From Squalus acanthias (lineage: Eukaryota): a DNA stretch of 64,000 nucleotides. The notes below the pieces were generated by a model. It searched no databases, had not been told where the DNA came from, and was given only the letters and a program-made list of their open reading frames with translations. Shown one piece after another: positions 4,687 to 45,451 of this stretch. Within the stretch, counting starts at the first letter, position 1. Every line of letters starts with the position of its first letter. The position numbers and the translations under genes are program-made. Location: the NCBI GenBank assembly GCA_030390025.1, contig CM059431.1, positions 124,312,001-124,376,000 on the forward strand, written 5' to 3'.

Positions 4687-6060
4687 ATAGAGTACAAAAG
4701 CAAGAGGGCTATGGTAAACCTTTATAAATCACTGGTTAGACCTCAACTGCATTATTGGCCCAAAAATTCGTGAGGAAGCCTTCGTGCGAGGGTAAGGCCT
4801 CCCCGCGATCTCTCACTCCGCGTTGGCTTTTTCAGTTCCAGCTCGCACGAACTTGATGTTCTGGACAGCTGCTGTGCTGGGCTTGCGTATCCCACCGGCG
4901 TAGTTAAGTCGTGCGAGCTGTGGGATCACGTGACTCAGTTAGAGCCAATGGCAGCACACCATCTTCCATTCATAACTTTCACATAAGTGCTGTGAAAGTT
5001 ATGAATACTATAGCCCCCAAAAGAACCGCTAAACCTCAATTAAATTTAAAAAAAACCATCACATTAATAAAATAAGTATAGTTAAATAAATTAACCATTT
5101 TAAATAAAAAATTTAATTTTTGAAAAAATTTAAAATCTTTTAAAAAGTTATAAAAATAAACTTACCTGTCTTTAAAGTCTCTAAAAAAGATATACCTGTT
5201 AAAAAAAATTCAAAATAATACTTAATTCACTACTTAACTTGTTAAAAGTGGGTCTTACTCCTTTTTTTATGTGTAGAATCTTCCGTACTTACCTGCGCGT
5301 TGAAACCACTAAGTGCATAGCGTGCGCGCAGCCTGTAGCGCGCACGCGGTGCACCTAGGACCCGCCCCCTTTTCCATTCTCCAAGTGCCGGTTTTCAGCG
5401 CATGCGCAGTGCATGCAGAAAACCGGCAATTGGAGACAGAATACGCGAGAGTACACAGTGCGTACTCTCGCGTAGCAAGACTAATTTTTGGCCCATTGTG
5501 TCCAATTCTTGGCACCACACTTTAGGAAGGATGTCAAGGACTGGAGAGGGTGCAGAGCAGATTTCCTAGAATGGTACCCAGGGATTTCCTAGAATGGTAC
5601 CCAGGACTTCAGTCATGTGGAGAGCCTAGAGAAGCTGGGATTGTTCTCCTTAGAACAGAGAAAGTTGAGCAGAGATTGAATGGAGGTGGTGAACATTATC
5701 AGGGGTTTTGATCAAATGGATAGGAAGAAACTGTTTCCACTGGCAGGAGGGCCTGTAACCAGAGGACACAGTTTTAAGATAATTGGTAAAAGAACCAGAG
5801 GAGAGATGTGGAGAATTTTTTTTTATGCAGAGTATTGTTATGATCTGGAATGTGCTGCCTGAAAGGGCGGTGGAAGCAGATTCAATCATAACATTCAAAA
5901 GAGAATTGGATATATACTTGAAAAGCAAAAATTTGCAGGGCTATGGGGAAAGAGCAGGGGAGTGGGACTAATTAGATAGCTCTTTCAAAGAGCCGGCAGA
6001 GGCACGATGGGCTAATGGACTCATTCTGTGCTGTATCATGCTATGATTCTATGATTTCTA
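4687..6060 (+). mobile_element. CR1 LINE 3' fragment, split by a MITE at 4757-5494
   Basis: Peptides IIRGFDQMDRKKLFPL..TRGHSFKI and FKRELDIYL..GYGERAGEWD match CR1 ORF2 C-terminus; ends in CTATG-type tail repeats. Confidence 0.85.
4757..5494. mobile_element. Harbinger-type MITE, hairpin family copy A
   Basis: TIRs GGCCCAAAAATT / AATTTTTGGCCC; 3-bp TSD ATT; removal restores the CR1 sequence; colinear with 33202-33965. Confidence 0.85.
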
Positions 6061-16777: not shown

Positions 16778-17957
16778 GTGTGTTAAGCATTCATCTGCCA
16801 ATATTGCCAAAATAAATTCCAGGATATGAGTATTAATATATGGCCTAGTTTTTCATACTAAATTTGCTGGCCAATATAAAAGGCCTCTCATAAATTTACT
16901 GCTTACTTTTTAAAAGAATCTTCTTCCTGGTAACAGCAACAAACAGGTTAAAAACAACGTGGTGGTGGCAACATCTCTGGTAATGCCTCAACACCAGAAA
17001 GAAAGAGCTTGACTTTATGACCTCAGGAAATGCCAAAGTGCTTCTCAGCTAATGAAGCTCTTTTGAATTGTTGTAATATAGGGAAACATGACAGCCAATT
17101 TTTGCACAGTAAAGTCCCACAAACAGCCAGTGAGATAAATGATCAATGAAACTGTTTTGGTGTTGGCTGATCGATAAATGTTGGCCATGTCACCAGGAAA
17201 ATTCTCCCGCTCTTCAAATAGAGCTGTGCGATCTTTTACATCAACCCTTATCTTAGTTTAACATCTCACGCTGCATTTCCTCACTCCACCACTGGAGTAT
17301 CAACTGAGATTATGGGCTGAATTTTCCTGGGTAGTAGCGGGCGAGATCGATTGCGGGTCAGGTGGGAAAGTTGTTATTTTTGACAGCGGGTCGGGAACCC
17401 CGCTGTCATCTCACTCCCATGCACCTTTCCTACAGGCGCGTCTGTCATCATGGAGCCAACCCAAACTGCAGCGGTGGGGGACCCAATTGAAATCATTATG
17501 AGGTAGTTTACAGGCACTTAAGAACCTTTTTCCCCCTACTTTTTAAATTTCCCTGCATGGCCAGGGGATTCACGCAGCTTGGGAACCACGTCTGTCAACA
17601 TGAGGCATGAGTTCTGTAGCCATTGCTCCAGCTGATTACTTGACAACGTGAAAAAGAAACCAAAATAAAAACATGTTGATTATATCAGCTAACAGATTGA
17701 TGGAGATTCTGTTCTACTTGAAAAGATACTGGTAAATGTTAATTCAGAAATTCCTGAAGGGATGCAAGTGCTACCCTGGATGGTGAGGGAAATACATTTT
17801 CCTATGGCCATTCTCAGCTGTTGCCTTCCAACTCAACAATAATTGCAGCGAATTGATCTGCACTATAAAAAATCACACATACCATTTAAATAAATGTTTG
17901 TGTTGTTTCTGGTCAGGTTTTTCTAACAGTACACTGTGATTGTCCAGTAACACATTA

Positions 17958-18400
17958 AGTCATATAGTCATAGAGTCATAACAGCACAAAAGGAGGCCAT
18001 TCGGCCCATCGAGTCCATGCCGGCTCTCTGTAGAGCAATCCAGTCAGTCCCATTCCCCCACTCTATCACCGTAGCTCTGCAAGTTTATTTCCCTCACATG
18101 CCTATCCAGTCTTCCCTTGAAAACATTGAGTGTCTCTGCTTCCACCACTTCCGTCAGCAGCGAATTCCAGGTCATTACCACTCGCTGCGTAAAAAAAGTT
18201 TTTCCTCACCCCCCCCCCGTATCTCTTGCCCAAAACCTTAAATCTGTGTCCCCTAGTCCTTGTACCATCAACTAGTGGGAACAGCCTTTCCCCATCTCGC
18301 CTATCCAAACCCGTCATAATCTTGTACACCTCTATCAAATCACCCCTCAACCTCCTTTGCTCTAATTCAAACAAATCCAGCTTCTCCAACCTGTCCTTGA
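17958..18400 (-). mobile_element. CR1 LINE 3' fragment
   Basis: LEQRRLRGDLIEVYKIMTGLDR..TRGHRFKV; (AGTCATAG) tail repeats. Confidence 0.85.
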
Positions 18401-18510
18401 ATAAATCAAGTCATCAACCGTAACAATTTCATTCTCCTCACTCATTCCACTGGTTCAATTTGCTTTCAATCCCTGAATATGACTAATTTAACTTTTCAGT
18501 CTGAGACTTT

Positions 18511-18669
18511 GGGGGTGAATTTCTACAGAGGTTCTCTCACTTGTCCATTGTTAACTTCAACAGAAGAGCTTCAGAAATCCCAGAAACACATTGTAAGGAC
18601 CACTTACACTGTTTGTCAGAGATTCCACAGCTCTTCTGCCGACCTTGCATAAGATTTCAAATCCACCCC
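18511..18669. mobile_element. Small MITE (159 bp)
   Basis: TIRs GGGGGTGAATTT / AAATCCACCCC; TSD TTT. Confidence 0.65.
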
Positions 18670-19825
18670 TTTACAAATACATTTAAAATCTGCTTAATTT
18701 TATGTATTACCTATATACACACACATCTTTTATTTGTACCAGTTACTGATACAAATGTCTATAGATTTGTGACTAAAGCACCAATAACTTCCCAATTAAT
18801 GTATTTTTAAAATTATGTTCTTGATCGTATTTGTAGATGGCATCATATTACTTAATGATAATATTTAAATATTTCTTTGTCACTCATATATAACTTTTAT
18901 TATATTATTGTACAGTAAAGATTCAACACCCACTATGTTAGATTAAACTTAAAATTAAATGTGGCCATGGTCCCTTTAAGGATCCCGGCTGAAAACGCAT
19001 CATGAATGACGTCACCAGACCCGCTCCATCTTATTGGGCTGGGTAACGCACTGGGCGGGCTTAATAGGCCCCATTAAGGTAAGTTCATTTTCTACAGCGG
19101 GATGGAGCCAGCAGCGGGGTCGGGACCCGCCACGGATACCGGCCGCAATGGACTCGCCATGGTAAGGAAAATTCCGGCCTATGTGCTCAAATTCTGGAGT
19201 AGGACTTGAATTCACTACCTTCTCAGTCGAAAGCAAGAGTACAACCACTGAATCAACACAGATACCAAGGAGTGGAATAGATGATAGAGGTGGCTTGGCC
19301 TTCAATTCATTGAGTTGATTTTTTTCTAATTATCCATCTCCTTTCAGAACTCCAGCCATGTGTTCAGATGGCATTGGGGGGAATTGTAACAAAGATATTT
19401 ATTTTGCTGTAGATACACTAACCATTAGAACTGACTTAGTGCCTGTCATTTCTGCTGAAACAATGACAGAAGACTTATGGAGACACATTTATATATTTTA
19501 TTCCGGTATCGTGGAAAATATATAATGCAGTCAGATTTACTGGCAGTCATAGCTCATTACCAACTGCTGAGAGTAAAATACAGTTCATGATTATAATAAT
19601 ACATAAACGGAGAACAAAGCAGTTCAAAACACGTGTGTTTGCTGAAAGAAATATTTCAACTTTTCAAACAGAATAAAACTTCATTCAGCATTGAGTCAAA
19701 TATTTATATTTATTGCTCGGAATTGTTCAACCGTCCAATTCAGCAGTTTAAAGAAGGAAAACAATTTATGCATTAATTTTGAAATTTCTTTATAGCTGAA
19801 GATAGATCCCTCAAACAACACAACT

Positions 19826-20011: not shown

Positions 20012-20859
20012 AATGTGCCCTAAACTTTCCGTTCCCAGTAACCTCAATATACAGGCTCAAAGTTTGCTGGTGCATGCGCTGTTAGTTAGACTTTTTCCCT
20101 CACCCTTCAGCTGAAAAATGTTTTGCCCTGTAAATTGATGGAAATGCGAGCTGATAACAGGGATAACAGGGCATCTGGGACCTTGGTGAACGATGGAACC
20201 AACAGTCTATTCCTTAACCAGTGAGTTTTAAGGATTGAGACAGAAACAGAGAAACAATGGAAAAGCAGGATGAATTAGAATGGATGAGTAAGAGTCAAAT
20301 CGGGTACAGGATGAGAAATTCAGGGAAAGTAGGGGGGCGATTTTCCCAGCCCTGTGGAGGCGGGTTTGGAGGTGGGTCAGTTCGTAAAATTGCAAAAAGT
20401 GAGTGCGGGTTTGGAAACTGCCTCCAACCCACCTCCGTGCAACTTTGCCAGAGGCAGGCTTCAGGAGTGCGATTTAGTCCTGCCTCCAAGACGCGGGATA
20501 GGCAATTAAGACCCTTAACAAGCACTTAAGGGCCTCTGTAATCCTATTTTGCCAGGCCTTTGTTATTTTCCCACATTTACAGCTTGTTGCACGCCGCTCC
20601 TAAAGCACGCCAGCTAATCCTGGCGGGTTGACAAGTGGCTGGCCTCCTCACAGCTGCAGCTCCTCCATAAAAATGGAGCTTTCAACAGGGATGAGTTGGA
20701 GGTGGCAGAACTTTTGTTGCACAGGTCTTTGAGCACTTTTTCCAGACCTACTGAAGTCAGAGTTGGTGCAGCTGAGATCTATCTACTTTGGGACCTCCTG
20801 GGAAAACCCTCTCCCCACGTGGACTGAGTGCTTCTCCAAGGGAGGTATCTGCCAGCAGC

Positions 20860-22142
20860 ATGGGAAACATTTATTTCCTTTCATCATGGACCTCAGATTC
20901 GGACGAGGAGCAGCCACAGCAGCAGCAGAACCAGGCAGAACAGCAGCAACAGCAGCAGGAGCGCCAACATGCTGCTCACCCACCTGATGCTGCACAGGGC
21001 AGAAGGCGCCAGTGCATGGCAGCACGTCACTGCAGGAGATACCCTCCTATCAGGGTTAACAGACAGAAGATGAGCTTCCTCAACATGAGTAAGCAGCAGT
21101 GACAAAAGAGGCTGAGACTATCGTGAGAGGTTGTCCGAGACATCTGCACAATGCTGCACCAACACCTGGAGCCCGGAGGATCCGGTGGACACCCCTTACC
21201 AGTGGCTGTCAAAGTCACCACCGCACTCAACTTTTTTGCTTCGGGCTCCTTCCAGGGATCATCAGCAGACATCAGCGACATCTCCCAGTCAGCCACCCAC
21301 AGTTGCATCACACAGTTTACCGATGTCCTCTTCGCAAAGGTGCACAATTACATCAACTTTTCAACGGATCAAGCAAGTGTAACCACGCGTGCGGTTGGAT
21401 TCGCAAATATGGCAGGCTTGCCAATGGTGCAGGGCGTCATAGACTGCTCATATGTGGCCTTTAGGGCACCCCATCACAACCCAGCTATTTTTGTCAACCG
21501 CAAGGGCTTCCACTCCTTCAACGTACAGCTGGTGTGTAACCACAAAAAGGAGATTTTGCATGTTTGCGCCAAGTAATGTGGTAGTTGCCATGACTCGTTC
21601 ATCCTGCGACAGTCTAGTGTGCCTCCGCTCTTCAATCCGCCAAACCAACCTAACGGATGGCTTCTTGGAGACAAGGGCTACCCCCTGAAGACGTGGCTAT
21701 GACGCCAATCAGGAGGCCATCGAACGAAGCTGAAGAGCGCGACAATGCCAGCCACATTTTGACCAGGTCCATCGTCGAACAAACCATCGGCTTGGTGAAG
21801 ATGCGATTCAGATGCCTTGACAGATCAGATGGAGCCCTGCAGTACTCAGCAGCCAGGGTCTCCAAAATGGTCGTGGTCTGCTGTACGCTGCACAACATTG
21901 CACAGCATCGTGGCTTGCAGCTTCCTGAGGAGCAATTGGCTCAGTACATAGCCTCCTCAGATGAGGATGAGGATGAGGAGGAGGAGGAGAATGATGACCA
22001 AGCAGAGGTGCATCAACCAGCAGCAGCAGCAGCACGCGAGCACATTGCTGGCCAGAATGCAAAGGATGCACTCATCTTGGCCAGATTTGCTCAGGTTGCC
22101 CAGTCTAGCGCATGTGCTTGGCGCCTTCTTAGCACAAGATAG
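20860..22142 (+). pseudogene. HARBI1-type DDE transposase of Harbinger 1
   Basis: [67 protein letters not shown]; stops at ~21100 and 21574, frameshift ~21690. Confidence 0.92.
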
Positions 22143-22953
22143 ACAATAGACATGACTCTCTGGCTTCTTCTCACTCTGACCACCAACCTGACCAAGCAAG
22201 TCTCGCTGAGGCCGCAATGTGGAACTTCCAAAACCGAAATCACAGAGGCCATAACGTCAACAGTTTGGCATAACCAGAGTTTAATACATTGACAAATGGA
22301 TGGCATTTAATCATTAAACACAAAAAAACACCCAAGTGACTGCCCGTGTGACTAATTGTGTTTTATCTTCCTCTTACGCGTGCTCCTACGTGGTGCTTCC
22401 CCTGTGGCTTCAGCAGAAGTGGAGAGCCCTTGCTCACTTTCATGCTGCTCCTGCTTTGACACCTTTGGCGGGCATCCTCTGGGATAGCGAGCCTGTGAGG
22501 GCTCGCCAAAAGTCTGCTCCTCCTGCGGCTGTGCAGGGGCTGAGACGCCCATCTCAGTTGGGTGAGGACTCTGATGGGGCTCTAACTGAGGACAATGCAG
22601 TGGCATGGAAGTGTGAGCAATTGGAGAGGAGCCCCCACTTACTTGTTCTCTGCCACCAACATCCCTCTCATGGGTCAGCCCCACCTCAGCGCTAGCAAGT
22701 GGCTTGAGACCACTTTGCTGCACATCAGGGGGGCCATGAGGACCCATCTCTGCACTGGTAGTCCTACTGCTGAGGATTTCCATGAAGCTCTGGCCTCTCT
22801 GATCTATAGCTGGCCATCGATCCTCCAGAGATGTCAGTCTATTCTGAACATTGACCATGTTTTCAACACTCTGGCGACTTACCTCCTCCATGGCCGTGGC
22901 CTTCATTTGCAGAGAGGCAGCCATCGATACCGCGGAGGTATAGGGTCATATAT

Positions 22954-23400
22954 GGGCTGGATTTTGAATGACCCATGGAGTCGGGTTTGGAGGCGTGTGG
23001 GGGGTTAAATTTGTGGGGTCGGGGTTTCCGACCCTATCCCGACTCTATCCCGCCTGCACGCAATTTTGACAAAATCAGTCGCGGGGTTCCCGACTCCGTC
23101 CCGCCTCCAAGAGGCGGGAGAGGCCATTAAAGCCCTTAACAAGCCCTAAATTGGGTCTGTAATGCTATTTTGAAACATTGTAGCTAGTTTAACCCTTTTC
23201 TGACGTGAAGCACGCCTGGTGTGAAACACTCCAGTGAAACCTGGCGGGAGCACAAATGGATAGCTGACTATCGGCTGCAAGTCCACTATTACAACGGAGA
23301 TGTGATGAAGGTAGTAGTAGTATTAGGTGTGAAAGTCGCCTCTGATACTGCTACAATCAATGTCATGGCATTTGGTTTAAGAGGACTTGGATGCAAAAAA

Positions 23401-23435
<35 letters not shown>

Positions 23436-23706
23436 TATATTAATTTGCATCAGAAGCAATGCAGACAGGTCCTCTCTCACCAGTAGCCAGACAATCTCTG
23501 AGAGCAGGCAGTCAGCAATGATGACATCATCAGAGGCGGGTTTAAGACTGAAACCACTAATTAGTTCATGGGTTCCCACATGCTGCAACTCAATTGCCCA
23601 ATTAAGTTAAAATTGCATCAGGCATCCACATTAATCTGGAGTCGGGGGGGAAAAACGAAATGCAGATTACACGACCCCAACCCGACCCCAAGACAAAATC
23701 CAGCCC
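22954..23706. mobile_element. Harbinger-type MITE inserted in the CR1 3' tail
   Basis: Perfect TIR GGGCTGGATTTTG / CAAAATCCAGCCC; subterminal similarity to the Harbinger 1 left end; (CT)n at 23404-23432. Confidence 0.85.
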
Positions 23707-23778
23707 ATAGAGTTATACAGCACAGAAAGAGGCCCTTCGGCCCATCGTGTCCGCGCCGGCCATCAAGCCCTGTCTATT

Positions 23779-26580
23779 CTAATCCCATTTTCCAGCACTT
23801 GGTCCGTAGCCTTGTATGCTATGGCGTTTCAAGTGCTCATCTAAATGCTTCTTGAATGTTGTGAGGGTTCCTGCCTCTACCACCCTTTCAGGCAGTGAGT
23901 TCCAGATTCCAACCACCCTCTGGGTGAAAATGTTTTTCCTCAAATCCCCTCTAAACCTCCTGCCCCTTACCTTGAAACTATGCCCCCTGGTTATTGACCC
24001 CTCTACTAATGGGAAAAGTTCCTTTCTATCTACCCTATCTGTGCCCCTCATAATTTTGTACACCTCAATCAGGTCCCCCCTCAGCCTTCTCTGCTCTAAG
24101 GAAAACAACCCCAGCCTGTCCAGTCTCTCTTCATAGATGACACGCTCCAGCCCAGGTAACATCCTGGTGAATCTCCTCTGCACCCTCTCCAATGCAATCA
24201 CATCCTTCCTATAGTGTGGCGACCAGAACTGCACACAGTATTCCACCTGTGGCCTAACTGGCATTTTGTACAGCTCCATCATAATCTCCCTGCTCTTATA
24301 TTCTATGCCTCGGGTAATGAAGGCAAGTATCCCATATGCCTTTTTAACCACCTTATCTAGCTGTCCTGCTGCCTTCAGGGATTTATGTACATGCACACCA
24401 AGGTCCCTCTGATCCTCTGTCCTTCCTAGGGTCCTGCCATTCATTGTGTATTCCCTTGCCTTTTTAGTCCTCCCAAAATGCATCACCTCACACTTTTCAG
24501 GGTTAAATTCCATTTGCCACTGTTCTGCCCATCCTCCTGTAGCCTGAGGCTTCCCTCCTCGCTATTTACCACTCCACCAATTTTCATGTCATCTGCAAAC
24601 TTACTGATCATACCTCCTACATTCATATCTAAATCATTAATGTACACTACAAACAGCAAAGGACCCAGCACCGATCCTTGCGGTACACCACTGGAAACAG
24701 GCTTCCAGTCACAAAAACAACCTTCGACCATCACCCTCTGCCTCCTGCCACTAAGCCAATTTTGGATCCAATGTGCCAAATTGCCCTGGATCCCATGGGC
24801 TCTTCCCTTCTTGACCAGTCTCACATGCGGGACTTTGTCAAAAGCCTTACTGAAGTCCTTGTAGACTACATCAACTGCACTACCCTCATGCACACACCTG
24901 GTCACCACCTCGAAAAATTCAATCAAATTGGTTAGATATGATCTCCCCCTGACAAAGCCATGCTGACTATCCTTGATTAATCCTTGCCTCTCCAAGTGGA
25001 GACTAATTCTGTCTCTCAGAATTTTTTCCAATAATTTCCCTACCACTGATGTTAGGTTCACTGACCTGTAATTCCCTGGTTTATCCCTACTACCCCTCTT
25101 GAATAATGGTACTATGTTAGCTGTCCTCCAGTCCTCTGGCACCTCCCCTGTGGCCAGAGAGGTTCTGAAAATTTGTGTCAGAGCCCCTGCAGTCTCCTCC
25201 CTTGCCCCACACAGCAGCCTGGGATACATCTCGTCTGGGCCTGGGGATTTATCCACTTTTAAGCCCGCTAAAACCGCTAGTACCTCCTCCCTCTCAATAC
25301 TAATTTGTTCAAGTATATCACAATCCCCCTGCCTGATTTCTATGCCTACATCGTCCTTCTCCATAGTGAACACAGATGCAAAATATTCATTTAAAACCTC
25401 ACCCACATCTTCCAGCTCTACACACAGATTGCCGCTTTTGTCCCTAATGGGCCCTACTCTTTCCCTGGTTATCCTCTTGCCCTTAATATACTTATAAAAC
25501 ACCGTGGGATTTTCCTTTATTTTGCCCGCCAGTATTTTTTCATGCCCCCTCTTTCCTTGCTCTCCTAATTTCTTTTTTAAGTACCCCCCTGCACTTTCTA
25601 TACTCCTCTAGGGCTTGCACTGTTTTTAGTCCTTTGTATCTGCCAAAAGCCTCCCTTTTTTTCCTAATCCATTCTTATATATCCCTTGACATCCAGGGTT
25701 CCCTGGGCTTGTTGGTCCCACCTGTTGACCTTTACGGGAACATGTTGGCATTGTACTCTCTCTATTTCCTTTCTGAACGACTCCCACTGCTCTGATGTGG
25801 ATTTTCCTACAAGTAGCTGATCCCAGTCCACTTTGGCCAGATCCTGCCTTATCATATTAAAATTGGCCTTCCCTCAATTTAGAACCTTTATTTCTGATCC
25901 ATCTTTGTCCTTTTCCATGACTGCCTTAAATCTCACCGAATTATGGTCACTGTCACCAAAATGCTCTCCTACTGACACTTCTACCACTTGCCTGGCTACA
26001 TTCCCTAGAATTAGGTCCAGTACCGCCCCCTCTCTTGTAGGACTTTCTACATGCTGGCTCAGAAAGCTCTCCTGGATGCACTTTAAGAATTCTGCACCCT
26101 CTAAGCCTTTCACACTCTGACTATCCCAGTTAATATTGGGGAAGTTGAAATCCCCTACTATTATTACCCTATTATTTCTACACTTCTCTGAGATTTGCCT
26201 ACATATCTGTTCCTCTATCTCCCCTTGACTGTTTGGGGGCCTACAGTACACTCCCAGCAAAGTGCTTGCCCCCTTTTTGTTTTTAAGTTCTACCCATATG
26301 GCCTCATTAGAGGAACCTGCTAAGATATCATCCCTCCTCACAGCAGTAATTGACTCCTTGATTAATATTGCGACACCCCCTCCTCTTTTACACCCCCCTC
26401 TGTCTCACCTGAAGATTCTATACCCCGGAATATTGAGCTGCCAGTTCTGCCCCTCCCTCAATCATGTCTCTGTGATAGCAACAATATCATACTCCTATGT
26501 GTTCATCAACACCTTCAATTCATCTGCCTTACTCGCAAGACTCCTTGCATTAAAATAAATGCCATCCAGCCTTGCCATAC
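23779..26580 (-). pseudogene. CR1 ORF2 (APE endonuclease + reverse transcriptase), frameshifted
   Basis: IIVGDFNFPNINW, LDLIL..GDSDHN, KSPGPD, DFSKAFDKVPH, GVPQGSVLGP, KFADD. Confidence 0.95.
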
Positions 26581-27652
26581 TCCCTTGTGCCATTACATAT
26601 TTGCTCTGCCTTCCAGGCTGACTTCTTTTTTCCTCTATATTTGGCTGTGCATCACCCCCTACTATAGCTCCACTCCGTATCCCATCCTCCTGCCAAGTTA
26701 GTTTAATCACCCCCCCCCCAACAGTACTAGCAAACCTCCCCGCAAGGATGTTGGTCCCGTTCTGGTTCAGGTGCAACCTGTCTGACTTGTATAGGTCCCA
26801 ACTTCCCCAGAAGCAGACCCAGTGATCCAGGAAACTAAAGCCCTCCCTCCTGCACCAACTCTTTAGCCACGCATTCATCTGCTCTATCCTTCTATTCCTA
26901 TACTCACTGGCACATGGCACCGGGAGTAATCCAGAGATTACAAACTTTGAGGTCCTGCTTTTTAATCTGCTACCTAGCTCCCTAAATTCTTGTTGCAGGA
27001 CCTCATCCCTCTTTCTACCTATGTCGTTGGTACCAATGTGAACCATGACCTCTGCCTGTCCACCCTCCCCCTTCAGAATGCCCTGCAGCCGTTCAGTGAC
27101 ATCCTTGACCCTGGCAGCAGGGAGGCAACATACCATCCTGGAGTCACGTCTGCAGCCACAGAAACGTCTATCTGTTCCCCTTACGATAGAATCCCCTATC
27201 ACTGTTGCTCTCCCACTCTTTTTCCTCCCCTCCTGTGCAGCTGAGCCACTCATAGTGCCACGGACTTGGCTCTTGCTGCATTCCCCTGAGAAACCATCTT
27301 CCCCAGCAGTATCTAAAACGGAAAATCTGTTTTAGAGGGAGATGGACCCAGGGGACTCCTGCACTACCTTCCTAGTTCTTTTACTCTGTCTGGAGGTCAC
27401 CCATTTCCTGTCTGCCTGTGCACTCTTTACCTGCGGTGTGACCACCTCGTTAAACGTGCTATCCACGAAGATCTCAGCTTCACGGATGCTCCATAGTGAC
27501 TCCAGCCGCAGCTCCAGCTCCGAAACGCGGATTTCGAGTAGCTGCAGCTGGAGACACTTCCTGCACATTTGTTCGCCCTGGACACCGAAAGTGTCCCTGA
27601 CTTCCCACATAGCACAGGAGGAGCACTCCATGCTGCCAAACTCCCCTACCAT
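26495..27652 (-). pseudogene. CR1 ORF1 (Cys motif + leucine zipper + SGNH esterase), frameshifted
   Basis: CSSC..CRKC, LEIRVSELELRLESL, VIGDSIVRG, HIGTNDI, DRLHLN. Confidence 0.9.
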
Positions 27653-30600
27653 GTCGTACCCTTAATTTACTCCCTTTACTTCCTTTAAATTAAAGAATAT
27701 TATATACACTAGGGACCTTACTTCCCTTTAAACACTACTTACTCTAAACTAGAGACATTACTTTTACTTCAACGACTGGACTGTAGAAATACTCACCAGG
27801 TCCTACTTACCAATCAGCTCCTTCCCTGGTTGTGACGTCACTTTAGCGGTTTCGCTGTTGTTGTTGTTTGACTGCTCCCACTCACGGACTCTTTCCCAAC
27901 TCGCAGCACTCCGGTAGACATCGCTTCCACGGAGGTAGCCAACCTTTCCGAGGAGATGCGCTCATGCGCCAATGACTCCACAAATGCTCTGCTCATATTT
28001 GAGTTGGCCCTCCATCCTCTCCACACACGCAATGACCCTGGAGACAAAACCTGACAAAGACTCCTGCACCTGTTCCTGGAGGTCCAGCACTGCTCTCCTT
28101 CTGGATGGACCCAGAGGCACAGGGTACACATGCAGCTGAGCAGAGCTAGGAGAGTCCTGCGACCTCCGACGAGGACTCTCCACTGCTGTTCCTGTCTCTA
28201 CTACCAGCTGATGCTCACTTGTGAGCTGTGACACCCCAGGTGACAACACTACTCTATGTCCCGAAGGTCCCAGCCGAGGTGTGCGTATCTGCGCTGGTGC
28301 TGGGTACGCTTACATCTGCTGACGCTGAGCCCTCAGAGGTTGCAGGTTCCTCTGAGGAGTCTTCCACCTCAGGCTCTTCCTCCTTGACAGTGGGGAGGGT
28401 GTCTGTCGATGGTCCTGTGGGGGAGTAAAGGAATGAGTTAGAGATGTTACGGTAGTGTGGCATGCACATGCAATAGCGCAGATGATCATTTGCCTTTCTA
28501 TAAATGTATATTCGCAGCCATTCTAGTGACTCTTGCAATGTAAAAGAGAGAGATGCAGAACTATTCTGTCACCAGCTTGCTCTGCTTCGCCCATCTGTCC
28601 ATCCCCCACGTCCACCTCCACCTCAGCGCCAACGATTTCCAGGGCCACCTCTTCAGCATTGGTCAAATGGGCGAGGGAAGGTGGCCCTCCTCCAGCCTTC
28701 GCCCTTTCCCTTTTATTGTGGGCTCTCTTTTCCTGCAATGATGGAGACAAGTGAGTTTGAGTGAGAATGATGGAGTGAGTGTAGAGAGTCCAGAGCATAG
28801 ATGCTTAGAAGGAGACCAAGATGGAGTGATGTTCCTTTTCCACGGGCCCTCCATGTGTGTTGTTATTCATTGTCATTGCATAACATTGATAGGGAGTGTG
28901 AGGGCAGCATAGTCGAATAATGAAGTGATTGTGTCCATAGAGTGAGAGGGATGGTTAAGGGTGCAAGGGTTGTAATGGTAAAGTGGAGGAGGAGGTTGAC
29001 AATGCAGAGTGCTGGTGACGAGAGGAGAAGGGGAGCAGAAGGAGGGTCAAGCTGATGCTATACTCACTTTGGCTGATCTTACAAGGTCATTGAACCTCTT
29101 GAGGCACTGCAGCCATGTTCTGCTGCACACAGATCTGGAGGTTAAATCCCATGCCAGCTGCACCCACACAGCCTTGGTTTGTGTGGGAGGCTTCTTCCCC
29201 CCAGATGAGGGGAAGAGCACCTCCCTGCTAGCTCTTACCCCCTCAACCAAAATACTCAGAGACTCCTCTGTGAACCTCGGGGAGGCCTTGGGTCTGGAGT
29301 TGACCATCTCTTCTCAACGCAAAAGTGTGCAGCATTCACAAAACAGCAGTGAAATTAGCCAAGGAAGCCAGCAGCCCTTAAATGAAGCTGCATAAGTGAT
29401 GTCAGCAGAGGCGAGTTTCAGTCCAAAAAGAGTAATTGGCCATGGGGAACCCATACACCCGGAATTAATTGGGCAATTAGGGGAAAATCCAATTTTTTTC
29501 CCACCTCACAGTGGAGGCGGGTTCAGCACCCGCCCACCCCCAAACCCATTCCCAACCCGCCTCCAATGGGAAAATTGCCCCCAACGATTTGATTAAGAGA
29601 GAAAGAAAAAAGAGACAGACAGGAAAAGTACACTTTTTTAATTTTAAATTTTAAACATCTCTAACAACAATTTACTATCAGTAGGAATGAGACCCCACAA
29701 TTTAAGTTGTTCCTTTTCTGGGCTGGAGAGATTGATTGGCATTGCAGGAATATAAATCTCTTCATTAAAAATGTTCTTAGGCTGATAAGTACTAGCTCTA
29801 ACTTTCTGTGATGAGTTTAATTGGCAATTAATGTGGAAATGCAACAACTTCATGAAACTCACCGAGAGGTTAAGGGCCCCTTGCTATTTTTGCGAGGCTA
29901 ACGGCGGAGCGGCATGAATCATCCAGCATCTTGTGGCAATTCACAATTCACAGTATATCGCTTCTTCACCACAAGTTGCTAAAGTATTTACACATGAATA
30001 ACGGTGTGCGCATTGAACTCACCGCTATTTTGGCAGCAAATTCTGGGCATTGTGTTTTAATATTTATGTTGTTTAGGACATGTCAAAATGTGTGCAGAGA
30101 GGAGCCTATTCAGCAAAGCTGAGGCCTCTGGAGGTTCATTATATTTAGAATAATTGGACTACAATGTCTCCAGACAGAGGTTAGATTGGAGCCTCCAGTA
30201 GTCTATTATAGAGGGTTTATGGAGAGCCTCCCACAACTTCTCTCACCTGTCACTGATAATAATAGTGCTCAAATTATTCTCCCAGTTAGATTTATGGATT
30301 GCTATTTTTCATTTTGCACACTGTAGAATAAACTGGATGAATTTATTTTATCTCTAGTATCTCCAGTTGAAATTTCTAATCATGTTATTGCCCTTAAATA
30401 TTAAGAAAACGATTTTAGGAATATTAAACTTCTGCTGTAGATATTCCTAAGATATCATGAATTTTGTTTAACAGGTCAAATATTTGTCTGAGTCATAATT
30501 CATTGTGGTACTTAAAAAAAAATAGTCTATTGAAACAGTTATCTTTAGCCTTTTCATTGGCTTACCAGTTCTGGTTATGCAGATGTGCCCGAATTGTAAC

Positions 30601-33201: not shown

Positions 33202-33965
33202 GGGCCAGAAATTTGGTTTTCCAGCTTCCTGCGGGTGCAAGCATCGCGCGCGTACTTGCCCACCGCGCCTGCAGTTGTGCTTTGGGCCCACGAGTACTTC
33301 GGGTCCTGGGCCTCCTCCAGCTGCCGGTGCGCAGTGCTTGTGTATCCCACGGGCGCAGTTAGTTCGAAGCATCCCCTGGGATCACGTGGGCAATGGAGAG
33401 CCAATCCTAGCAGGGCATTTTCATTCATAGATTTGACAGGAAGACCTGTCAAATCTATGAATAGAGATTGACCCCAAAACCACACTTAAACTTCAAATAT
33501 TTTTTTTTTAAATCACATTTTTAAAATAAGTATAAGTTAAATAAATTAACTACTTTAAACAAAAATTTAAATTTTTGAAAAAATTAATTATACTTTTTAA
33601 CGGTGCTAAAAATAAACTTACCTTTCTTTAAAGTATCTAAAAAAGATAAACCTGTTGAAATTTTTTTTTAAATTGTAATTAATTAACCACTTACCTTGTT
33701 AAAAACAGGCCTTGCGCCTCCTTTTTTAAAGCGCAGCTTCTTCATACTTACCTTCCCGGAGAAACCTGAAAAAAAAAACGGAAGTTCGCTGCGTGCGCGC
33801 AGCCTCTCCCGCGCACGCGTTCGACTTCTGAACCCCTCCCTTCAGGGGAACGGAAGTTCCGGTTTCCCGCGCATGCGCAGTGCATGCAGGAAACCGGCAC
33901 TTCAGATGGCCTTACGGGTGAGTACACAGCGCGTACTCACCCGACAAGAGCCGAATTTCTGGCCC
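33202..33965. mobile_element. Harbinger-type MITE, hairpin family copy B
   Basis: TIRs GGGCCAGAAATT / AATTTCTGGCCC; colinear with 4757-5494. Confidence 0.85.
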
Positions 33966-34481: not shown

Positions 34482-34654
34482 CTCCTGAGGGTGGATCCAT
34501 GCGGACTTTGGTCGAACACTCTTGGGCAGTTCAGAAAGGACTCCTGAGGGTGGATCCATGCGGACTTTGGTCGAACACTCTTGGGCAGTTCAGAAAGGAC
34601 TCCTGAGGGTGGGTTGAAGCTGACCTCAGTCTAACACTCTTGGGCAGTTCAGGA
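34482..34654. repeat. 59-bp tandem repeat, about 3 copies
   Basis: Units start at 34482, 34541 and 34600; first two identical, third has a different middle. Confidence 0.9.
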
Positions 34655-34868
34655 ACAGAGAGGAATAAGGAGAGTTGTTCGTGCATGCTAGCCGTCTGTC
34701 CGATTGGGTCCAGTACCAGCTATTTGTCACGGCTGTATGTTTTTGCTGTATAACCAGTGTGTTATATCCCGTCCTAAACTCCGATTAAATACAATATACC
34801 CACCATATTGGTTTGCACTCGATCCTGATAATCTAATCTCAGCAGGGTGCCAAATGTGCTTTTCATTT

Positions 34869-37550: not shown

Positions 37551-38294
37551 GGGCTGGATTTTCCAAGCCCCGAGGAGGCGGGCATGCAGGCGGGACAGCC
37601 GGTAAATTCAGAGAAAGTGGGGGCGGCTGGCAAAGCTGCCCCCATCCCACCTCCGTGCCCTTTTGCCAGGAGGCGGGAAGATGTGTAGCTTCGGGTCCCG
37701 TCTCCTGGAGGCGGGAAAGGCATTTAATCCTTTTAACTGCCTGTTAACAGGTAATTAACAGGCAGAAAAAAGGATTAGAGCCATTTTACCTTCACAGGTG
37801 AAGGCTTCCCGACCTCGGAGAACCCCGTCGGGGTGGAGGAGACGTGAAGGAGGTCGGCGACGGTCGGAGGCACCTGGAAGTAAGGTGTAGAGGTGAGTGA
37901 TGGCTGCAAGTGTGGAGTGGTAAGTATGCAAGGTGAGTGATAAGTTTTAAAAAGTGTTCACTTACCTTGTTTTCTTTCTACAGCCTTCAGCCGCGGTGGA
38001 TCGGGAGAGCCGACATCCTCCTTGTCAATTTCACAGACTGGCTGTTGGAACCGCCTTCACAGAGCTGTCAAATGCTGACATTTCTTCTTTCATGAAGTCT
38101 TGACAGATAGCACGTCTGACGTTGACGTGCTCTGTCAGTGACTTCCTCCCTAATTGCTGAGCCTGCAGGGCGGGCTTAACAACGTCAATCAGGGGAAAAT
38201 CCCTCTGGTTGGTCAGGCGAGGATGGAGGCGGGACATTGACATGACATGCAGCTGTCCCGCCTCCAACTCGCCTCCATTCACAAAAGCCAGCCC
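37551..38294. mobile_element. Harbinger-type MITE inside the Harbinger 2 terminus
   Basis: TIRs GGGCTGGATTTT / AAAAGCCAGCCC; flanks CTT/CTA. Confidence 0.7.
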
Positions 38295-39299: not shown

Positions 39300-39960
39300 C
39301 CCTACCATTGGTTGATGGTGCAGGCAGAAAACTGAATCCTGAAAAAGCTAAACTTACAGTTCTATTTATCCACTCCTCAAAACTGTCAGAGTGCGTGAAA
39401 ACATTTCTTCCCACACAGTTAGCTGCACATGCAGTGTCATTCCCGTTTGAAGAAATAGTATCTGAGTGTAACAGTATTGCAATATTTTGAGAATGTACAT
39501 AAAGCTGAAACTACATAAAATGAGCATTTCCCAACTTTTACTGATCTCTGTTTCCATATCGCCTCCAACCTCGCCCTCTCCCACAGGTTCTCTCATGATT
39601 TGCAGCGACTCCTCTTCGTGTGTACTCAGGTTTTCAGTGCTGTTGCTCCTTTCCCAGTTGTGTTTCAGTGGTGCTTGTTGTAGGTGAGCTATTTCTTTTG
39701 GAAGCAGAGAAGTCAATTTTAACGGCATGTGAGTGGTATTGAGATTTAGCCCCAAATGAGGAATATGATGATGAAATGTGGAGGTGCATAGTTCCGTTAA
39801 ATGAAGTGTCCTTGAAGAATAGTAATAGGTGTTGTGGCTTGCAATGTGAGTTGCCAGAGTGGTCTTGCGTATAGAATGTGCTTGTAAGTTTGCAGAGGTT
39901 TCCCTTTGCAAAAGTGAATTCCCCTGTCATCCGGTTTCTTAGAGAGAAATGTACTAGAGG
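39300..39960 (-). pseudogene. Possible highly decayed Harbinger Myb-like gene remnant
   Basis: KEIAH..LSTHEEESLQIMRE..EVGGDME resembles exon 2 (EKRAHN..LTNAEEVALEIVG..VGDG). Confidence 0.35.
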
Positions 39961-40578
39961 TAAGAAGATGAAGAAGGTTCTATGAGTGGTTGAGCATGTG
40001 TATTGGCAAGATAACCTTGACTTACCTTGACTTACATAGAATTACATAGAGTACAGCATAGAAATAGGCCATTCGTCCCAACAGGTCCATGCCAGTGTTT
40101 ATGCTCTACACAAGCCTTCTTCCACCCCTCTTCATCTAACCCTTTCAGCATTACCTTCTAGTAATTTCTCCCTTCTGTTTATCTGGCTTTCGCTTAAATA
40201 TAACTATGCTATTCGCCTCAACTAATCCCTGTGGTAGTAAGTTCCACTCTCTGGGTAAAAAAGTTCCTCCTGAATTTCCCATTGGATTTATTGGTGACTA
40301 ACTTATATTTATGGCCCTTAGTTTTGGACAGCCCCACAAGTGGAAACATTTTCACTACATCTAACCTATCAAACCCCTTCATAATTTTAACGACCTCCAT
40401 TAGGTAACCCCTCAGTCTTCTCTTTTCTCGAGAAAAGAGCGCCAGCTTGTTCAATCTTTCCTGATAGGTATAACCTCTTGTTTTGGTATCATCCTTGTAA
40501 ATCTTTTTTGCACCTTCTCCATATCTCTATATCCTTTTATTATAATATGGAGACTAGAACTATGCACAGTACTCAAGT

Positions 40579-41354
40579 CTTCTTCTTCTTCTTCTTAGGC
40601 AGTCCCTCGGAGCCGAAGATGACTTGCTTCCACATTAAAAATGAGTTCTCAGGTGACTGATGAGTCCAATACGGGACCTACAGTCTCTGTCACAGGTGGG
40701 GCAGACGGTGGTTGAAGGGGCGGGTGGGTGGGGTGCTTGGGTTGACGTGCGCTCCTTCCGCTGTTTGCGCTTGGCTTCTGCTTGCTCCCGGCGAAGAGAC
40801 TCGAGGTATTCGGCGCCTTCCCAGATGCTTCTCCTCCAATTTGTACGGTCTTGGGCCAGTGATTCCCAGGTGTCGGTGGGGATGTTACACTTTTTCAAGG
40901 AGGCTTTGAGGGTGTCCTAAAAGTGTTTCCTCTGCCCACCTGGGGCTCTCTTGCCGTGTCGGAGCTTCGAGTAGAGCGTTTGTTTTGGGAGTCTCACATC
41001 GGGCATGCGGACGATGTGACCTGTCCATCGGAGCTGATCGAGCGTGGTCAAAGCTTCGATGCTGGGGATGTTGGCCTGAGCGAGAAACCGGATGACAGGG
41101 GAATTCACTTTTGCAAAGGGAAACCTCTGCAAACATACAAGCACATTCTGACGTTGGTGCGCCTATCCTGCCAATGGATTTGCAGGATCTTGCGGAGGCA
41201 GCGTTGGTGGTACCTCTCCAGTGCTTTGAGGTGCCTGCTGTACATGGTCCATGTCTCTGAGGAATATAGGAGGGCGGGTAACACTACTGCTCTGTATACC
41301 ATGAGCTTGGTGCCGGGTTTGAGGTCCTGTTCTTCAAGCACTCTCTTCCTCAGG
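40579..41354 (-). mobile_element. RTE-clade LINE 3' fragment
   Basis: TKLMVYRAVVLPALLYSSETWT, QLRWTGHIVRMPD.RLPKQ.LY, CPTCDRDCRSRIGLISHLRTH; (GAA)n tail; TSD CTCAAGT. Confidence 0.92.
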
Positions 41355-42749
41355 CTCAAGTATGCAATTGTGGTCTAACCAAGGTTCTATATAAGTTGAA
41401 CATAACCTCTCTGCTTTTGAATTCTATCCCTCTAGAAATGAACCCCAGTGCTTTGTTTGCTTTTTCTACAGCCTTATTAACCTGCGTCGCTACTTTTAGT
41501 GATTTGTGCATCTGTATCCCTAGATCTCTCTGCTGCCCTACCCCATTTACACACTTATTTTCTAAGGAGTATGTGGCCTCCTTATTCTTCTTACCAAAAT
41601 GCACAACCTCAAACTTATCGATATTGAAATTAATTTTCCAATTAAATGGCATTGTGCAAGTTTATTAATGCCTTCTTGCATTTTGTCTAAATCCTCCTCA
41701 GTATTCACTATACCCCCAACATGGTGTTGTCCTCAAATTTTGAAATTGTACTTCTGTTTCTCAAGTCCAAATTGTTTATTTAAATGGTGAACAACAGTGG
41801 TCCCAGCACCGATCCCTGTGGAACACCACTTCCCACCTTTTGCCAGTCTGAGTAGTTACCCTTACCCCTACTCTCTGTTTCCTGTTTTGTAGCCAGCTTG
41901 CTATCCATTCTGCTACTTGTCCACTGACTCCACATGCTCTGACCTTAGTCATGAGTTGACCTTATTAAAAACCTTTTAAAAATCCAAATATATTACATCT
42001 ACTACATTAACCTGGTCTTTCTGTTACTTTGTCAAAGAAGTCAATAAGGTTGGTCAAGCATGACTTTTCCTTTTGAAGTCCATGCTGATTATTCTTTACT
42101 ATATTTTTGGTTTCTAGATGTTTTTCTATTACATCCTTGAGTAAATACTCCATTATCTGTCCTACCACTGATGTTAAGCTAACTGGTCGATAGTTCCCTG
42201 GGCTTGTTCTATCTCCCTTTTTAAATATAGGAATAACATTAGCTGTCTGCCAGTCCTCTGGCACTATTCCCTTTTCTAATTAATTTTTATATATATGTAA
42301 TTCAGACTTAGGGTTTTATCTTCTCTAAGTTTGGTTAGTTTATTAATTATCTCCTCCCTTTCTATCTTGAATGTCTTTATATCTTTTTTAATTTCTACTT
42401 CTAATGCAATTTCCACTTTGTTAGTCTCCCTGGTAAATATTGAGGCAAAGTAACTATTCAATATTTTTGCCATTTTGGTGTCATTACCTGTGAGTTTATC
42501 TTATGACTCCCTTAGTGGCCCTATACCTATCCTGATGTTTCTTTTATTATTATGATATGTCTGTAGAATATTTTACTTTTTTTTATATTCCTTGATCATT
42601 TAATTTAGTGGTTCTTCTTTGCCTTCCTAATTGTTTTTTGACTTCTTTTCTAACCTCTTTGTATTCACTTTTGTCATCCTCTCATTTGTTTTCTGGGGCC
42701 GGAATTTTGTTTACCTGGGCAGGTTGGGTACGGGTGGCCAGCGTGGCCA

Positions 42750-43298
42750 GAGGTTGTGTAGATTGGGACTCTACTCATTGGAGTTCAGAAGAATGAGAGG
42801 CGATCTTATTGAAACATATAAGATTGTGAAGGGGCTTGATCGGGTGGACGCGGTGAGGATGTTCCCAATGATGGGTGAAACTAGAACTAGGGTACATAAT
42901 CTTCGAATAAGGGGCTGCTCTTTCAAAACTGAGATGAGGAGAAACTTTTTCACTCAGAGGGTAGTGGGTCTGTGAATTTGTTACCCCAAGAAGCTGTGGA
43001 AGCTACTTCATTAAATAAATTTAAAACAGAAATAGACCGTTTCCTAGAAGTAAAGGGAATTAGGGGTTACGGGGAGCGGGCTGGAGATTGGACATGAGTT
43101 TGAGTTCGGATCGGTCAAGGCCCTGTGGGTGGCGGAGCGGGCCCAGGGGCCGAGTGGCCTGGTCCTGCTCCTACTTCTTGTGTTCTTTAGAGTTGAGGTT
43201 GGATCAGATCAGCCATGATCTCATTGAATGGCGGAGCAGGCTCGAGGGGCCGATTGGTCTACTCCTGCTCCTATTTCTTATGTTCTTATGTTCTTATG
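42750..43298 (+). mobile_element. CR1 3' fragment inside Harbinger 3
   Basis: RLGLYSLEFRRMRGDLIETYKIVKG; (TTCTTATG)n tail. Confidence 0.88.
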
Positions 43299-43533
43299 AC
43301 CCTGTTCCTCATTTCATGCCGCTCCTCAGAGCGACTTTCCCTTAATGGGGCCTATTAAGGCAGCCCTGCATGTTACCCGGCACTATTATATGGTGCGGGT
43401 CTGATGATGTCATCGATGACTCATTATCAGCTGAGATATTTAAAAGAACCTTGGCCATATTGCATTTGAAGATTCATCTAGGATTGTGCAGGCACTGTAT
43501 TGGAGCATTTGGGTGTTGCTAAGCCTTGGAAAC

Positions 43534-45451
43534 ATGATTGCACAGTGGCAGAGGGCTGCACCCAGGTTCTCAGCTGACTCCTTCCATGTGCTTGTGGATT
43601 AATTATATCCTCCCTTTCTATTTTAAATGTCTTTGTATCTCCATGTGCTTGTGGAGGGAGTCAGAGCATGCAGGGAGGTCGTCTTTCCTTCTGATGGGTG
43701 GAAGAGACCTCCCCAGGAGACAAAATGAGCTGACTAGAGATTACAGAGGAGGTCAACAGCAGGGATGTGGTCAGCCGGACCTGGGTACAGTGCCGGAAAT
43801 GCTTCAATAATCTCATTAGATCACGAAAGGTGAGTGTTACGCCAAACTCATCCTGCTGTGCCTCTCATCACATCCCCATCACTCTGCCTTCCCGAACCTG
43901 CTCCTGTGCATCATTACTCACACCAACATACGTTGCACATCCACCAATCCCTCTCTATCTACATTATCACATCCCCATCTGAATAACCATCCCTCACACT
44001 CACCTTCATCCTAATGCAATCATACCAACTAACAACACACAAGGAGGCCATTTGGCATTGGCACCCCACTCCATCATAGTCTACCTCTAAAGATGTTACC
44101 CATCCATTCCTTACACTCATTCCAACACTCTCATTGAAACTTCTCTTCTTTCCCTCCTTGCAGGAGAAGAGAGCCCACAATAAGAGGGAAAGGGAGAGAA
44201 CTGGAGGTGGCCCTCCATCATTGGCGACGTTAAATGCAGCAGAGGAGGTCGCCCTGGAAGTATCAGCAGTCGCACAGCAGCTCGCGGTGGGAGACAGAGA
44301 GAGGCAGACATCTCAGCAACCTGGTAACAGAATTACATCTCATACAGCCACATGGCATACAGTAGTCACTCAGATGGGAAATGATGTCAGCAGCCAGTGA
44401 ATGTTCATCATGTGCATAATTGTATCTTTGCCCATTCTTGATATGACATTTCTAAATCATCTCTTTACTCTCCCACAGGTCCATCAAGAGACTCCCCCAC
44501 TGTCCAGCAGGAAGAGGAAGACGACTCCTCAGAGCCTTTAACTTCTGAGGGTACACTGTCACCAGACATAAGCGCACCCAGCAGCAGCGCAGATGCTTAC
44601 ACCTCGGTGGGTACACGCGAGTTAGAGTAGTGTTGCCACCTGGTGTGTCACACATCACAAGTGAGCAAGAGGAGATGGTGGAGACAGGGGCAGCAGTGGA
44701 GACTCCTCGCCGGAGGGCACAGGATGCTTCTAGCTCTGCTCAGCTGCATGAAAACACTGAGCCTCGGGGGCCATTGAGAACGAGAGTGATCCTGGAGATG
44801 CAGGAAGAAGTGCAGGAGGCTTTGACAGGTTTTGCGACCTCGATGTCAGAAAATGTGCAGAGAATGGAGGAGTCCATCTCCAAGATGAGCACCACCATGT
44901 CGCAGGTGATGGCGACACTAGGTTCTTCCATGGACAGGGTGGCCACCTGCATGGAGCAGCTAATGCACCACTCACATGAGCACATGCTCTCTATGGAGAA
45001 TAGATGGCAGAGGCTTATAGACCTCCTTTCTAGGAGGGATGTCAACATAGCCTTGGGTCCTCATGGCCCCACTGCTGTGCAGCAAGGTGCGCTCCAGCTC
45101 CTTGCTAGCACGGAAGTGCGGGTGGCCCATGAGAGAGATGACGGTGAGAGGGGACATGGAAGTGGGGGCTCCTCTCAAAGCACTCACAATTCTTCCCCAT
45201 TGCATCCCCCTCAGTCAGAGCCCCACATACCTCCTGAGATCGCGATGGCCGAGTCTACCCCTGCACAGTCGCAGGAGGAGCAGACTTTGGTGGGGGGGGG
45301 GGCACCACAGGCTCCAAGACCCAGAGGACATCCACCAAAAGTTTCTAATGAGTCGCAGCAGGGAAGTGAGCAGGCTGCCTCTACCTCTGCTGAAGCCACA
45401 GGGGTTGCACCTCGTAGAAGCATGCGTAGGAGAAAGATGAGACACAAGTAG
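43534..45451 (+). pseudogene. Myb/SANT-like gene of Harbinger 3; exons 43534-43829, 44164-44323, 44479-45451
   Basis: RTWVQCRKCFNNL, EKRAHNKRERERTGGGPP, 273-aa open stretch ending PRRSMRRRKMRHK; GT-AG introns; exon 1 disrupted. Confidence 0.88.

Follow-up and report, generated by a model that had tools for sequence, protein, structure and literature searches.

Paired base changes in the internal hairpins of two Harbinger-type MITE copies from Squalus acanthias are consistent with symmetry kept at the DNA level

Two copies of a miniature transposable element, here called A and B, carry internal hairpins in which bases on opposite arms have changed together between the copies. Both lie in a window of 64,000 nucleotides of the Squalus acanthias contig CM059431.1, which is the whole stretch of DNA that was analysed and to which all positions refer. 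The covariation is real and far above chance. The reading that we favour, at somewhat better than even confidence, is that paired cis-sites are selected for mobility and polished by template switching, i.e. that a Harbinger-type MITE maintains a symmetry at the level of its DNA, with dimeric sites and hairpin-templated repair acting together as the most likely combination. All ingredients of this reading are known processes. If it is true, even strong covariation of base pairs within a DNA transposon is not necessarily a sign of a functional RNA. At present, the case is a well-supported oddity in an ordinary element class, seen in two copies.

Copy A (4757-5494, plus strand) is a 738-bp non-autonomous TIR element inserted within a CR1 LINE, and copy B (33202-33965, plus strand, 764 bp) belongs to a sister lineage. 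They are 72% identical over 656 nt according to blastn and 70% identical over the 734 columns of a global alignment. Both have TIRs of 12 bp that begin with GG(G/C); those of A (4757-4768, plus strand, and 5483-5494, minus strand) differ at one position, and those of B (33202-33213 and 33954-33965) are perfect. Copy A is flanked by ATT on the left (4754-4756, plus strand) and again on the right (5495-5497). Because two CR1 copies representing the empty site (24310-24155 and 14254-14166) align gap-free at the junction when the flanks of A are closed over a single ATT, the target duplication of A is 3 bp long. In copy B the left flank reads ATT but the right one TAT, so that a clean TSD is lacking; a search for a homologue of the flanks of B or for its empty site within the window returned none. 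The AT-rich core of A spans 5030-5300. No ORF of at least 95 aa overlaps A, and the five ORFs overlapping B have no Pfam match. A third copy of the element was found neither within the 64-kb window by blastn nor in the genome-contig and viral-contig scans.

The G-rich 12-bp TIRs, the 3-bp TSD of A, the lack of coding capacity and the presence of GGG-ended neighbours with DDE_Tnp_4 would place A and B among the non-autonomous PIF/Harbinger (PHIS) elements. Two such neighbours are decayed elements of the autonomous type, at 20332-29582 (DDE_Tnp_4 fragment 21127-22139, plus strand) and 42695-47398 (fragment 46024-46368, minus strand); their ends are of the GGG...AATT/ATTT type, and neither has blastn homology to A or B. 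An autonomous partner with ends matching those of A or B was not found within the window. The ATT duplication of A differs from the TWA that marks PIF/Harbinger in the strict sense, and an ANT duplication is described for the Pangu group of PHIS (PMC4482050). According to the description by Han et al. (2015, PMC4482050), Pangu elements have an ANT duplication and TIRs starting with AG or GG, both of which fit A; membership, however, is defined there by the transposase and many TSDs, compared with one clean TSD in A and none in B here. Other GGG-TIR elements of the window have TAT or CTG target sites, unlike the ANT of Pangu. A Helitron or Helentron identity was also considered, as hairpin 2 (see below) sits near one end. 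Helitrons and Helentrons have no TSD and no true TIR and carry a 3' hairpin near the end, and the true TIRs and 3-bp TSD of A rule this identity out.

Stems were defined as perfect pairings of at least 8 bp with a loop of at most 30 nt, on one copy alone. Hairpin 1 is AT-rich and has a perfect stem of 16 bp with a loop of 7 in A (4968-5006) and of 18 bp with a loop of 4 in B (33423-33462); it is not built from the repeated end motif described below. Hairpin 2, with a stem of 13 bp in A (5442-5474) and 11 bp in B (33915-33943), sits 20 nt (A) or 22 nt (B) from the right end. Hairpin 3 spans 5378-5436 in A, with an inner 11-bp stem at 5386-5428, and 33859-33897 in B, with an inner 9-bp stem. Hairpin 4 combines an inner 10-bp stem (5320-5347) and an outer stem in A (5309-5358), and has an inner 9-bp stem in B (33791-33818), where the outer stem is imperfect. 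Copy B additionally contains an imperfect, hairpin 2-like palindrome in its 5' subterminal part (33228-33272), which shares with hairpin 2 a CGGGTG and a 14-nt stretch that is 86% alike.

Between A and B, hairpin 1 differs by three double changes (A-T to G-C, C-G to A-T and C-G to G-C), hairpin 2 by two (C-G to G-C and A-T to T-A) and hairpin 3 by one (T-A to C-G), and hairpin 4 has none in its 10 pairs. The variable 6-bp tract of hairpin 1 is symmetric in both copies and resembles no repeated motif; the outer 7 bp of this stem are conserved. With the four stems set on A (50 pairs), 40 pairs are kept in B, 6 are altered on both sides and 4 are broken on one side only; all four breaks lie at stem ends, and internal one-sided breaks amount to 0 of 50. 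With the stems set on B (47 pairs), 39 are kept, 6 double-changed, 1 broken and 1 gapped. An earlier, sequence-only reading of this DNA had reported three internal hairpins. Its coordinates, its perfect stems of 16 and 18 bp and its three compensated changes for hairpin 1, its coordinates and two changes for hairpin 2, and its single change for hairpin 3 came out exactly on recount; all three hairpins are present and co-changing, but the fourth (5320-5347 in A, 33791-33818 in B) had been missed.

Chance can be ruled out as the origin of the covariation by randomisation and slid controls. When the 16 changed stem sites were randomised over the stems of A with the background substitution matrix, compensated pairs numbered 0.40 on average, and none of 200,000 trials reached six; the B-defined stems gave a mean of 0.34, and once more 0 of 200,000 trials reached six. 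Slid controls gave no double change in six out of six cases. Independent change at the stem rate predicts about 13 one-sided breaks per 50 pairs. In a shuffle control, 6 of 500 shuffles reached seven double changes (TIR counted), which is near the floor attainable with two rows. The covariation analysis as a whole comprises two sequences, A and B.

Both copies look young. Their observed/expected CpG ratios are 1.13 (A) and 1.06 (B), whereas the window as a whole has 0.39 and ten other repeats fall within 0.22-0.85. Transitions make up 18 of 53 mismatches in the well-aligned parts of A and B; in four repeat pairs that have decayed they make up 141 of 220 (p = 9e-5). The share in A and B resembles that of the two transposase genes of the window (56 of 127; p = 0.25). 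The pattern of divergence between A and B is therefore unlike post-insertion decay, and compensation after insertion is ruled out, as both copies look young by their CpG content and share of transitions. Among the 24 runs listed, 17 (from 4 coded organisms and 7 studies) contain 0.36-0.73 of 78 words sampled from A; these are word shares only and, if evenly spread, would correspond to a divergence of 1-3% between A and the sequences in those runs. Each copy would so be near its own master, the 30% divergence between A and B having accrued in lineages that were still active. Since both copies look young, the double changes arose between active lineages, and the perfect stems were inherited from the masters and are therefore uninformative on selection acting on the inserted copies.

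Are the stems kept symmetric for the sake of an RNA? Selection on an RNA fold would require that the element is transcribed and that its stems function in RNA, and some observations agree with this. Folding is strong, with DNA z-scores of -11.0 (A) and -7.9 (B) relative to 20 shuffles; both copies have retained motifs that resemble promoter elements and splice donors; and 7 of the 24 runs listed, which are possibly RNA (or DNA), contain 0.39-0.50 of A's words; three runs recorded as RNA contain only 0.04-0.08 of these words, which is evidence neither way. However, cut-and-paste elements do not use RNA to move, and the changes themselves do not resemble those of a folded RNA. Four of the six double changes are transversions, for which there is no route via a G-U pair, and a one-sided G-T or A-C change, including any internal one-sided G-U change, occurs in neither the A-defined nor the B-defined stems. 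Among the compensated changes 2 of 6 are transitions, the same proportion as in the background (0.33), and this differs from the 61% reported for one-step compensations in rRNA (10.1101/2021.04.15.439925) with P = 0.17, which is weak taken alone. There is no strand preference: in 7 of 8 hairpins the plus and minus strands differ by less than 1.2 kcal/mol when folded as DNA, and with at most two G-U pairs per hairpin both strands fold nearly alike. A search for Rfam families gave no match at gathering score anywhere in the window.

Loops are no freer than stems. The two copies agree at 36 of 43 loop positions and 84 of 100 stem positions (both 84%), compared with 15 of 41 in the spacers, which are stretches between the 3' modules chosen by the analyst (loops versus spacers, p = 1.5e-5). 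As loops are conserved like stems while spacers are not, whole modules are kept and not just pairing. The surroundings of the hairpins had been described earlier as clearly diverged; this is correct for the 5' GC-rich part (60% identity) and the inter-hairpin spacers on the 3' side, but not for the AT-rich core, which is 81% identical, nor for the loops, which are on par with the stems. Co-change also extends to the TIRs, which are protein sites more than 700 bases away from each other: 1 of 12 pairs is double-changed, or 2 of 15 if the TIRs are extended, the second being at position 15, as compared with 6 of 46 in the hairpins. RNA-fold selection on the stems is thus unlikely and not supported, although the criteria for a structured RNA, judged here on two sequences, have low power, and as a full account of the covariation we give it very little credence. 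The proposal of the sequence-only reading that structure is being maintained stands as far as the symmetry is concerned, for which dimeric protein sites and hairpin-templated repair fit best. Its RNA fold is not supported, given the equal conservation of loops and stems, the transversions, the strand symmetry and the co-change of the TIRs.

The ends of the elements contain repeated short motifs that may explain part of this symmetry. The A-type subterminal motif TCGTGCGAG is scattered over the 5' end of A in three copies, at 4782-4790 (plus strand), 4842-4850 (minus strand) and 4909-4917 (plus strand), and its GCGAG core reappears in both arms of hairpin 2 of A. GCGAG/CTCGC is thereby present five times in A, three times dispersed at the 5' end and twice in the hairpin 2 arms, and is absent from B. 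One compensated pair of hairpin 2 results from a G-to-C change, and the dispersed site 4842/33286 shows this change too. Overall, three of the five A-type motif sites show this same change in B (two of them being the hairpin arms), one is ambiguous and one is lost. A lineage change common to the arms of hairpin 2 and a dispersed site may be read from this, but the correspondence is suggestive only. The arms of hairpin 4 contain CGTGCG, which is also the core of A's 5' motif, and the 21-nt loop of hairpin 3, identical in A and B at 20 of 21 positions, contains the palindrome GCGCATGCGC. The sequence GCGCAYGCG is found six times in the window, always within A or B, compared with an expectation of 0.08.

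Different proteins could read such sites. The Myb-like protein of Harbinger elements binds element ends (PMC2836001, PMC9392472), and in the Emigrant MITE subterminal repeats are protein-bound (PMC1636448). Host promoter factors may be an alternative reader of the end motifs, judging by the motifs themselves: CACGTG (4927-4932) and CCAAT (4945-4949) are kept in A and B according to the alignment. We take these to be an E-box and a CCAAT-box, i.e. putative host promoter sites, and likewise assume that GCGCATGCGC in the hairpin 3 loop is an NRF1-like palindrome and putative site and that the GGAAGT repeats of B are ETS-like putative host promoter sites. ACTTACC motifs, putative 5' splice donors on the minus strand, are located at 5160 and 5287 in A and at 33616, 33689 and 33746 in B; the window contains 17 of them against 6.7 expected, a count as high as this being reached in 1 of 100 shuffles. 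On the minus strand the sites in A and B lie downstream of the promoter-like right end and may be a first-exon relic. A scan of B for bacterial promoters and terminators stayed at shuffle level, the models being bacterial and the host a vertebrate. When the 21-nt motif of the hairpin 3 loop was compared with metagenomes, eight loci were found with homology that never extended past 21-27 nt. Six of them (L002-L006 and L008) represent one unrelated AT-rich repeat family that has the motif alone in common with A and B, and the palindrome may possibly be used by unrelated repeats.

Lineage-specific end motifs are also found in other elements of the window. GTCGGG occurs six times in the element at 22954-23706 of a neighbouring family and is missing from 37551-38294 and 20332-29582, which use GGCGGG instead. 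The elements 22954-23706, 37551-38294, 17314-19179 and 50603-51199 have their own end motifs (GTCGGG, GGCGGG, AGCGGG and GGCGCT, respectively) in 6-7 copies. The commonest GC-rich 6-mer of the ends exceeded shuffles (P <=0.025) in 7 of 12 elements and did not in 5 of 12. Lineage-specific end motifs could serve as a natural series for testing co-evolution between the Harbinger Myb-like protein and its sites.

Such co-evolution might by itself have produced the paired changes, if half-sites changed separately by point mutation and selection tracked the Myb-like protein, without any copying between arms. This agrees with dispersed motif copies that change by lineage even far from a partner arm, and with loops that are conserved like stems. 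However, it would require a symmetric reading of every base in arms of 11-18 bp, including the variable tract of hairpin 1, and it predicts one-sided intermediates inside stems, of which 0 were observed in 50 pairs. We regard it as improbable in this pure form. Binding alone leaves mirror-perfect whole arms unexplained, hairpin 1 above all.

Copying between arms would account for this perfection. If every mutation that hits one arm is transferred to the other arm or else removed, pair changes should accumulate at about the per-site background rate. In hairpin 1, 3 of 16 pairs have changed, compared with 3.0-5.2 expected from background rates of 0.19-0.33. In hairpins 2-4, 3 of 29 pairs have changed, compared with 5.5-9.5 expected; this lower count points to added sequence constraint. 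Template switching has been described as creating stems, or repairing several mismatches, in one event (10.1101/2021.04.15.439925), and mPing gains copies in yeast via homology-directed repair at the excision site (PMC10288884). By analogy, the repair of an excision gap may have been the setting of arm copying in A and B. Loop inversion, a direct footprint of template switching, was not seen between A and B. Hairpin 1 could in principle have originated from a small inverted triplication (as outlined in PMC13334657), but this candidate was dropped since a clean third copy was not seen.

Hairpins are abundant in the window generally. It contains 26 perfect hairpins of at least 10 bp, compared with 1, 1 and 6 in three shuffles, and 17 of the 26 fall in eight short, GC-rich elements, which together make up 10% of the window and include one whose boundary was set by alignment. 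Excluding A and B, 11 of 20 perfect hairpins lie in six other short Harbinger-like elements. The 11-bp hairpin at 37737-37765 is restricted to one lineage and has no counterpart at that place in two relatives, as the formation of stems in one step would predict.

It could be asked whether template switching makes and polishes palindromes with zero selection. The rate of change in hairpin 1 fits such a purely mutational origin, as do the frequency of hairpins in many elements of the window and the one that is lineage-specific. On the other hand, hairpins 2-4 and their loops are far better conserved than adjacent spacers (36 of 43 versus 15 of 41), and CpGs are kept in A and B, so that we consider mutation alone very unlikely. 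The clean pattern of A and B was not repeated in other element pairs of the window, which are decayed or less than 65% identical; of 13 pairwise element comparisons, the 6 below 65% identity were left out as covariation evidence. In the MITE pair at 54141-55224 and 58670-59515, both CpG-decayed, 1 of 30 pairs is compensated with stems set on the first copy, and with stems set on the second copy 67 pairs include 1 compensated change, 10 one-sided breaks and 2 gaps.

The favoured reading, paired sites polished by template switching, would combine these observations as follows. A and B would be young copies, each from its own active lineage, and the two lineages would have separated long ago within one non-autonomous PIF/Harbinger (PHIS)-type family, whose GC-rich ends probably form arrays of short putative binding sites in both orientations. 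These sites would be read by the Myb-like partner protein of the mobilising element or by host promoter factors. Closely spaced inverted pairs of sites could constitute hairpins 2 and 4, and probably 3. Selection for mobility would keep the modules of stem and loop, and the preferred motif would drift by lineage. A change in one arm would be copied to the opposite arm, or erased, in one short-range template-switch event, most plausibly during re-synthesis of the element in homology-directed repair of the excision gap, a presumed route of copy gain for such elements. The expected outcome is strictly Watson-Crick, strand-symmetric stems whose double changes ignore base identity and run close to the background rate, like those of the TIRs.

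Hairpin 1 is the sole stem without an explanation from repeated motifs and the strongest candidate for a required DNA structure. A secondary structure of the DNA itself, as a cruciform or a single-stranded hairpin, might be required for mobilisation or for survival of gap repair, with hairpin 1 as the structural cis-element. This stem is perfect over 16-18 bp across lineages that are 30% apart, with a symmetric variable 6-bp tract, and long perfect palindromes tend toward loss unless maintained. The stems are strand-symmetric and without G-T, and in several other elements of the window a perfect hairpin lies at a distance of 145-330 nt from one end. However, hairpin 1 changes at the rate predicted by neutral arm copying, and hairpins are found at variable distances, with sequences that differ between families and in one case arose in a single lineage. 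The mPing scan as summarised in PMC9921582 invokes GC content and nucleosomes rather than a hairpin or secondary structure, and accounts of PIF/Harbinger of the kind considered here describe no single-stranded step. A requirement for DNA structure is, on this balance, rather unlikely. Similarly doubtful is its generalisation that vertebrate Harbinger-type elements need an extrudable internal hairpin, recognised by shape, for transpososome assembly or for re-copying during gap repair. If true, the covariation would give the first hint that a eukaryotic cut-and-paste transposon has a cis-element dependent on structure, and a structurally required hairpin 1 would mean an unrecognised requirement of Harbinger transposition with relevance to vector design.

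The closest known systems each share some of these features. The sequence-only reading had placed internal features of this kind outside the standard MITE model, which was too strong, as internal or subterminal sequence matters in mPing (PMC9921582) and Emigrant (PMC1636448) according to the summaries of both studies. The Tourist-like mPing of rice (PMC2836001, PMC9921582, PMC10288884) resembles A and B in being non-coding, with short TIRs that start with GG and a 3-bp TSD. Its internal and sub-TIR sequence affects mobility, which is tuned by internal sequence without one common motif (PMC9921582). It differs in its length of 430 bp and its TWA duplication, compared with 738-764 bp and, in A, ATT; the four perfect, co-changing internal palindromes of A and B have no counterpart in these summaries of mPing. 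Harbinger3_DR and Harbinger3N_DR of zebrafish rely on two proteins, the transposase being brought to the element by a Myb-like protein that is bound at its ends (PMC2836001, PMC3016246, PMC9392472). Compared by description, the target of Harbinger3_DR is a CWG-centred palindrome (PMC3016246), in contrast to the ATT of A. Emigrant/Lemi1 of Arabidopsis has subterminal repeated motifs that are cooperatively bound by an element-encoded protein (PMC1636448), but it is a pogo-type element (Tc1/mariner) and not a Harbinger, and the abstract does not mention covarying hairpins. The stems studied by Monttinen and Loytynoja (10.1101/2021.04.15.439925) show that one template-switch event can give a perfect stem and apparent compensatory changes; they are known from rRNA and microRNA loci under selection for an RNA fold, whereas A and B belong to a DNA transposon in which we infer the switching. 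The literature searched, mostly open-access and exclusive of Repbase, did not describe internal hairpins that covary in Harbinger MITEs. The Myb-like protein of Harbinger3_DR reportedly binds repeated GC-rich palindromic subterminal motifs.

The remaining repeats of the window are diverse, and many further elements have GGG...A(A/T)TT ends. Both DDE_Tnp_4 elements contain a second, convergent ORF, the two being 48% identical over 181 aa and without a convincing Pfam match. The element at 20332-29582 is split by the MITE 22954-23706 and a CR1 LINE with ORFs for a GDSL esterase, an endonuclease and an RT. The MITE copies at 54141-55224 and 58670-59515 are inverted members of one family, 3.4 kb apart and 82% identical, and a GIY-YIG ORF (55663-56046) lies between them. 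A perfect palindrome of 88 bp, closed by a loop of 4 nt, occupies 51526-51705; it resembles a fold-back insertion and perhaps belongs to a Penelope-like element. An element of another type, 1277 bp long, is located at 39873-41149 and has 67-bp TIRs that are 99% complementary. Furthermore, a perfect stem of 27 bp that encloses a 24-nt loop stands isolated at 711-788, and a 59-nt unit occurs three times in tandem at 34482-34658, two of the units being identical.
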